From assembly GCF_003334335.1 (NCBI RefSeq), contig NZ_QOWQ01000001.1: a stretch of 64,000 nucleotides of DNA; one strand, 5' to 3'. Position numbers and translations under genes: made by a program. Positions 6,530 through 6,876 of the stretch are shown here, one piece after another; position 1 is the first letter of the stretch, and the number at the start of each line of letters is the position of its first letter. Source of the stretch: Escherichia coli. Lineage in GTDB: Bacteria > Pseudomonadota > Gammaproteobacteria > Enterobacterales > Enterobacteriaceae. Under the pieces are notes generated by a model. It was not told the origin of the DNA. It did no database searches and saw only the letters and a list, made by a program, of their open reading frames with translations.

Positions 6530-6611
6530 GATGCCCTCCAATATGGTTATTTTTTATTGTGAATTAAGATAGGTGAGTACGACGTAAAAAGATGTGAAGC
6601 AAATCACATCA

Positions 6612-6627
6612 GTGTAATCGCTTACAC
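6612..6627. promoter_or_regulatory. GalR/GalS-type operator-like palindrome upstream of galP
   Basis: gtgtaatcgcttacac with perfect half-sites GTGTAA/TTACAC, about 85-100 bp upstream of the galP start; a second half-site gtgtaatcgg lies near 6797. Confidence 0.45.
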
Positions 6628-6876
6628 TAACATTTATCTTAGTTATGATTTAAGTGCATGAAAATAATTGAGTTATATCATCATAGATTAAACGCTGTTA
6701 TCTGCAATTAAGACTTTACTGAAAAGAAATGTAACAACTGTGAAAACCGAATAATAATATGAAAATATTACAAATCTTTGTCTGTTGTGGTTGGTGTAAT
6801 CGGTTTCAGTTGTGATGATAATCTGCGGTGAAACGTGATCAGGAAGAATGATGTTATTGTGCGGGCGGTTTTTTTG

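Follow-up and report, generated by a model that had tools for sequence, protein, structure and literature searches.

The known GalR/GalS operator pair of the Escherichia coli galP control region and its conserved spacing across Enterobacteriaceae

The control region of galP in Escherichia coli contains two GalR/GalS operators, one next to the promoter and one far upstream of it. The region was analyzed in a 64-kb stretch of E. coli DNA (the window), in which positions 6400-7000 proved on sequence comparison to be 100% identical to the metK-galP intergenic region of E. coli K-12 MG1655. Each of the 5,426 complete E. coli genomes searched contains this stretch. According to the RefSeq annotation of the identical MG1655 stretch, it is flanked by galP and metK, both of which lie on the minus strand of the window. 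The GalP protein matches the sugar porter family of the MFS with 507 bits, and the hairpin of the metK terminator is kept in many genera. The features of the region are collected in Table 1.

Table 1. Features of the galP control region, in window coordinates
Feature	Position	Strand	Description
galP coding sequence	5135-6529	minus	464 aa, galactose/proton symporter; regulated gene; RefSeq annotation; A of start codon at 6529
NagC operator	6546-6568	minus	CTTAATTCACAATAAAAAATAAC; overlaps the inferred start, about -9 to +14
Inferred transcription start	6559 (about ±1 nt)	minus	Leader of about 30 nt
Inferred -10 hexamer of the galP promoter, TATCTT	6566-6571	minus	T, A and final T (6571, 6570, 6566) invariant in the 38-sequence alignment
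CRP site, perfect core TGTGA-N6-TCACA	6593-6608		Center 6600.5, inferred -41.5, class II position
OI(galP), promoter-proximal GalR/GalS operator	6612-6627	minus	GTGTAATCGCTTACAC; center about -60.5 from the inferred start
Conserved block, GTTACA-N5-TTTCAG-N4-GTCTTA (E. coli)	6709-6735	minus	Nearly invariant columns in the alignment
OE(galP), distal GalR/GalS operator	6794-6809	minus	Window strand GTGTAATCGGTTTCAG; galP strand CTGAAACCGATTACAC; center about -242.5
metK intrinsic terminator	6909-6933	minus	Terminator scan; upstream limit of the galP control region

The OI/OE pair at galP consists of GalR/GalS operators that are already known and published. A sequence-only reading of the region had pointed to perfect GTGTAA/TTACAC half-sites at the proximal position, and direct reading bears this out: gtgtaatcgcttacac stands at exactly 6612-6627, its outer hexamers are exact reverse complements of each other, and seven of the eight pairs of the dyad are palindromic. 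OI agrees with the published GalR consensus GTGNAANC.GNTTNCAC at all 12 specified positions and lies 90.5 bp upstream of the galP start codon. It is listed at MG1655 3088186-3088201, and it is the site inferred for the GalR ChIP-chip peak that is strongest in the genome (PMC5110547, Table 1). Its in-silico score of 25.1 is the highest of the gal regulon operators among the values available from that source (PMC5110547).

For the distal site, the same reading had claimed a second copy of a half-site near 6797. The letters gtgtaatcgg are indeed present and start at 6794, close to where they were placed, but they belong to a complete 16-mer, GTGTAATCGGTTTCAG, and not merely to a half-site. This operator, OE, agrees with the consensus at 11 of the 12 specified positions and lies 272.5 bp upstream of the start codon. 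The published OE(galP), CTGAAACCGATTACAC, listed at MG1655 3088004-3088019, is the reverse complement of window positions 6794-6809 (PMC5110547, Table 1). The distance between the centers of OI and OE is 182 bp in the window, the same as the published MG1655 distance. Operator positions 3, 5, 9 and 15 are genetically critical (PMC5110547), and on direct reading G3, A5, G9 and A15 are present in both GTGTAATCGCTTACAC and CTGAAACCGATTACAC.

Within the species, three strains (K-12, one of group B2 and one of serotype O157:H7) have identical DNA from OE to the start codon except for a few flanking substitutions, and the differences that lower the overall identity lie upstream of OE. A REP-like sequence, gccggatgcggcgtgaacgcctatcc, is found at window positions 6860-6905, between the metK terminator and OE. 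Beside it is a 13-bp stretch that is present in B2 and O157 strains and missing from K-12, a polymorphism that explains most of the 90-95% identity class of E. coli genomes. In one strain from swine, E. coli PEC240, an IS1 element (locus L044, 2780-3560) is inserted inside OE at about window position 6806, and the galP-side copy of the operator next to the element reads GTGTAATCGGTTTggt. This allele was found in 1 of 5,426 genomes and was the sole low-coverage hit among the matches listed; it may be a natural derepressing allele or a neutral one.

The two operators also stand out within the window as a whole. When the consensus GTGNAANCGNTTNCAC was searched on both strands of the 64 kb with at most one mismatch allowed, OI and OE were the only matches, against an expected number of 0.22, and two such matches were reached in 2 of 100 shuffles; with two mismatches there were 8 matches against 3.1 expected. 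Scoring with a GalR/GalS position weight matrix, which the sequence-only reading had proposed as a check, was carried out with a GalR matrix derived from 18 ChIP-chip sites of PMC5110547 from which the galP site had been excluded. The matrix placed OI first (6612-6626, 16.8 bits) and OE second (6794-6808, 15.9 bits) among 127,972 positions, and both scores fall within the range of the training sites (14.7-22.3 bits). The best unrelated hit reached 14.5 bits, a margin of 1.4-2.3 bits that is modest by score alone. Weaker GalR-like matches were seen elsewhere in the window at 25181-25196, 30792-30806 and 22834-22849. By coordinate arithmetic the first of these is the in-silico "mscS" site of PMC5110547; the regions that GalR bound in the ChIP-chip data of that study include none of them.

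Published work places these operators firmly in the regulation of galP. Both OI and OE are counted among the nine classical operators of the gal regulon; the GalR ChIP-chip signal at galP, 115.4, is the highest in the genome (galE, 78.1); and deletion of galR up-regulates only three promoters, that of galP among them (PMC5110547). In reporter experiments the galP promoter combines a galactose and a cAMP input, and deletion of galS alters its response (PMC2516365). PMC4073488 describes PgalP as inactive without cAMP-CRP and its CRP-mediated activation as inhibited by GalR binding. Relief of galP repression by galactose is seen in the reporter data of PMC2516365 and PMC4073488. Under selection for GalP activity, loss-of-function mutations recur in galR, galS and nagC (PMC10519446). 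The Reg-Seq preprint does not include galP. The assignment of galP to the gal regulon, also made in the sequence-only reading, is thus borne out by the published operators, the GalR ChIP-chip data, the derepression in the galR deletion and the galS-dependent reporter response.

The promoter onto which the operators act can be laid out from the sequence. The CRP core is the sole zero-mismatch match in the window, and its center lies 19 bp downstream of the center of OI. If this CRP site is taken as -41.5, the hexamer TATCTT falls at -12 to -7, and it is from the CRP center together with this -10 that the transcription start is placed near 6559. Judged from these elements, galP is a class II CRP-dependent promoter with a weak -10 and with CRP at about -41.5, a figure that depends on the inferred -10 and start. 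The terminator scan also flagged positions 6591-6610 on the minus strand as terminator-like, a stretch in which the CRP palindrome is followed by a T-run (GATGTGATTTGCTTCACATC TTTTT). The CRP dyad itself is the most likely cause of this call, although the stretch could act as a weak stop to read-through from metK.

A second and independent repressor input on the same promoter is provided by NagC. In contrast to GalR and GalS, NagC belongs to the ROK family, and its site is a 23-bp AT-rich sequence that lies over the start point. A NagC matrix built from 10 other NagC sites gave the operator at galP 22.0 bits, the first rank in the window. El Qaidi et al. 2009 reportedly described a NagC operator at galP. 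The NagC operator published for galP, cttaattcacaataaaaaataac (PMC3098098), coincides with window positions 6546-6568. In the alignment described below, the six Escherichia sequences are the only ones with so strong a NagC site at this place, and in other genera no NagC-like site above about 14 bits was found in the galP region. This distribution suggests that galP came under the control of NagC within Escherichia. The site is thus Escherichia-restricted in the sample, whereas the GalR operators are family-wide.

Conservation of the operator pair was assessed in a scan that took a single genome from each species and searched it for the composite pattern TGTGA-N6-TCACA-N3-GTGNAANCGNTTNCAC. The scan yielded 40 loci, 39 of them in Enterobacteriaceae and 1 in Photobacterium. 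The window and the 37 loci with enough flank gave an alignment of 38 sequences, of which 37 are galP upstream regions of enterobacteria belonging to at least 15 genera. The species sample is therefore conditioned on an intact OI and CRP pattern and speaks only for genera that have it (neither Klebsiella nor S. enterica subsp. enterica was recovered); OE was not used in the selection. A matrix-scoring OE was present upstream of OI in all 37 enterobacterial sequences. The distance between OE and OI was 182 bp in 26 species, 181 bp in 4, 183 bp in 4 and 184 bp in 1; it was thus 181-184 bp in 35 of the 37, and the two outliers had 172 bp and 168 bp. In the species with the 10-bp-shorter spacer, phase is kept. 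With a helical repeat of 10.5 bp, 182 bp makes 17.3 turns, which is not clearly a whole number, and with one of 10.7 bp it makes 17.0, so that the helical phase weighs little either way.

This constancy of length is accompanied by divergence of the spacer itself: an ungapped comparison with E. coli gives about 31-37% identity for most other genera, and 49-52% for Citrobacter and Salmonella. In 17 of the 26 species with 182 bp, an internal landmark of the spacer is found at -114.5, and in the other 9 at -115.5. One-base changes in the sub-intervals are therefore compensated, since the landmark moves by 1 bp and the total of 182 bp does not change. As a control distance, the interval between the metK terminator and OI varied from 204 to 270 bp across species.

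The divergent spacer contains one conserved block, which has the core GTTACA-N5-TTTCRG at 6719-6735 and which in most genera reads TGTTACATT.C.TTTCAGTTAAGTCTGAA, with the inverted repeat TTTCAG-N6-CTGAAA. The block lies 114.5-116.5 bp upstream of the center of OI in all 37 enterobacterial sequences. Exact matches to GTTACA-N5-TTTCRG were found at most once per locus, in 34 of the 44 loci fetched, and always at the position upstream of galP. Several candidate identities were examined and set aside. The block does not appear to be a third GalR operator, as the matrix gave no hit above 8 bits there in any species, or a NagC site, as the best NagC score in 6500-6900 besides the known site was 7.2 bits. 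It also does not fit a sigma-70 promoter: scanning 6450-7000 with the consensus gave no promoter on the minus strand, neither strand offers a -35/-10 pair with A2 and T6, and the extended -10-like TGtTACATT has a last T that varies between genera, which speaks against it. No Rfam family reached the gathering threshold in 5000-9000. The block is not known to bear a convincing resemblance to the motifs of OmpR, CpxR, PhoP, DeoR, AgaR, Cra, MetJ, TyrR, IHF or Fis. We found no mention of the block in the literature searched, though El Qaidi et al. 2009 may describe it.

Comparison with better-studied promoters helps to place the arrangement at galP. The closest relative is galETKM (OE at -60.5, OI at +53.5, CRP at -41.5), which has the same repressors, the same 16-bp dyad and likewise two operators for its promoter region. 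At galE, OE at -60.5 and CRP at -41.5 are 19 bp apart (PMC4693257), and OI of galP sits 19 bp upstream of its CRP site, exactly as the OE of galE does. The two systems differ in that the galETKM operators flank the promoters at a distance of 113 bp, so that the loop encloses the promoter, whereas the two galP operators are both placed upstream, with 182 bp between them. Calling the galP site OI is by analogy only, since it is not inside a gene. The operators of mglB, galS, galR and chiP share with galP the consensus GTGNAANC.GNTTNCAC and control by GalR/GalS together with cAMP-CRP; in comparison with these, the galP OI is closest to a perfect dyad and has the highest ChIP-chip signal (PMC5110547).

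The operator-CRP module is also found outside the family. In Photobacterium aphoticum (Vibrionaceae), a perfect CRP core stands 3 bp beyond the GalR-type operator GTGTAAACGTTTACAC (locus L032, 649-683), and this module precedes galE-galT (L032, 811-2953). The operator-CRP unit with its 19-bp spacing is therefore common to galP and galE promoters across families. A further parallel is the lac operon, in which, as at galP, a strong proximal operator (O1) is joined by a weaker distal one (O2 or O3) at a fixed distance. The distal lac operator is thought to raise the local concentration of repressor through looping. The lac system differs in that LacI is a stable tetramer, and looping at galP is proposed from the conservation of the spacing alone. 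GalR dimers associate weakly and at galE need HU and supercoiling (PMC5110547, PMC4693257).

Taken with the published data, these results make it very probable that the known OI/OE pair serves a class II CRP promoter at which OI blocks activation, OE assists by means of an upstream loop and galactose releases the repressors. A repressor bound at OI, directly upstream of CRP at about -60.5, would block CRP-dependent activation; on the precedent of galE P1, where OE has the same position, it would likely do so by occupying or contacting the place of the alpha C-terminal domain of RNA polymerase. OE would most likely raise the occupancy or stability of OI through GalR-GalR contact that loops out the upstream DNA, a cooperation to which the strictly conserved spacing points. 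D-Galactose releases the repressors, and in Escherichia NagC adds a further repressor site over the start point. The sequence-only reading had envisaged looping over the promoter, which does not agree with the positions of the sites. Both operators lie upstream of CRP, of the -10 and of the inferred start (OI at -60.5, OE at -242.5), and a loop between them would enclose upstream DNA and not the promoter.

How much of the repression such a loop could carry is a separate matter. It is possible that, on the model of the galETKM repressosome, repression works mainly through looping between OE and OI, the apex of the loop being occupied by an architectural protein. The strictness of the spacing and the compensating 1-bp changes in the sub-intervals fit this proposal, as does the position of the conserved block close to the geometric midpoint of the OE-OI interval (6710.5), and GalR does form HU-stabilized loops at galE (PMC5110547, PMC4693257). 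However, the promoter would lie outside the loop, HU lacks the sequence specificity that would explain the conserved block, and no data on looping at galP were found in the literature searched. PMC4073488 further reports that GalR T322R, which does not form tetramers, represses a galP-derived promoter with wild-type logic; that promoter came from part of the galP region and may or may not have included OE, and no such result for the full-length region with OE was found in the literature searched. This behavior suggests that the proximal site can exert basic repression without looping, and we consider a mainly loop-based mechanism doubtful.

The block itself invites a related and still more tentative proposal, in which the galP control region would form an upstream nucleoprotein complex of fixed geometry, in place of two independent operators, and the block (GTTACA-N5-TTTCRG-N4-GTCTNA) could seat a third sequence-specific component. 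What suggests a fixed geometry is that the mutual distances of OE, the block and OI differ by no more than about 1 bp among the genera compared, which number at least 15, and the block would lie near the apex of the putative 182-bp loop. We offer this as a speculation with the odds against it.

Another possibility is that OE works independently of OI, with the repressor bound there forming a roadblock, just downstream of the metK terminator, to read-through from metK into galP. The gene order would allow this, as metK is highly expressed and co-directional with galP and OE lies between the metK terminator and the galP promoter; in addition, GalR at the OI of galE has been discussed as a possible roadblock (PMC4693257). 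A roadblock would, however, not need a spacing conserved to one base pair, and a function linked to the terminator would predict the opposite of what is seen, since OE is fixed relative to OI (182 bp) and the distance from the metK terminator to OI is variable (204-270 bp). We therefore regard an independent roadblock role as unlikely.

We give practically no credence to the view that OI and OE are chance palindromes, or mainly sites of another LacI-family regulator with a similar half-site: a CG-centered dyad is common to LacI-family operators and the matrix margin over the best unrelated hit is only 1.4-2.3 bits, but chance is untenable given that the top two hits lie 182 bp apart in one intergenic region and are conserved across species, and direct GalR ChIP-chip occupancy, derepression in the galR deletion, the response of the promoter to galactose and GalS, conservation of the sites in 37 species and the same operator-plus-CRP module upstream of galE-galT in Photobacterium all stand against it, so that this view is already refuted by published binding and expression data.

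As a discovery the operator pair carries little weight, because control of galP by GalR and GalS through both operators is textbook knowledge with ChIP, genetic and reporter support. Its value is that of a positive control for sequence-only reading, since a true operator pair was recognized from sequence alone. What the comparison adds is the 182-bp spacing, held across Enterobacteriaceae despite the divergence of the spacer, the conserved block between the operators and the confinement of the NagC input to Escherichia in the sample. These additions could steer a small follow-up on the part that the distal operator plays in the repression of galP.
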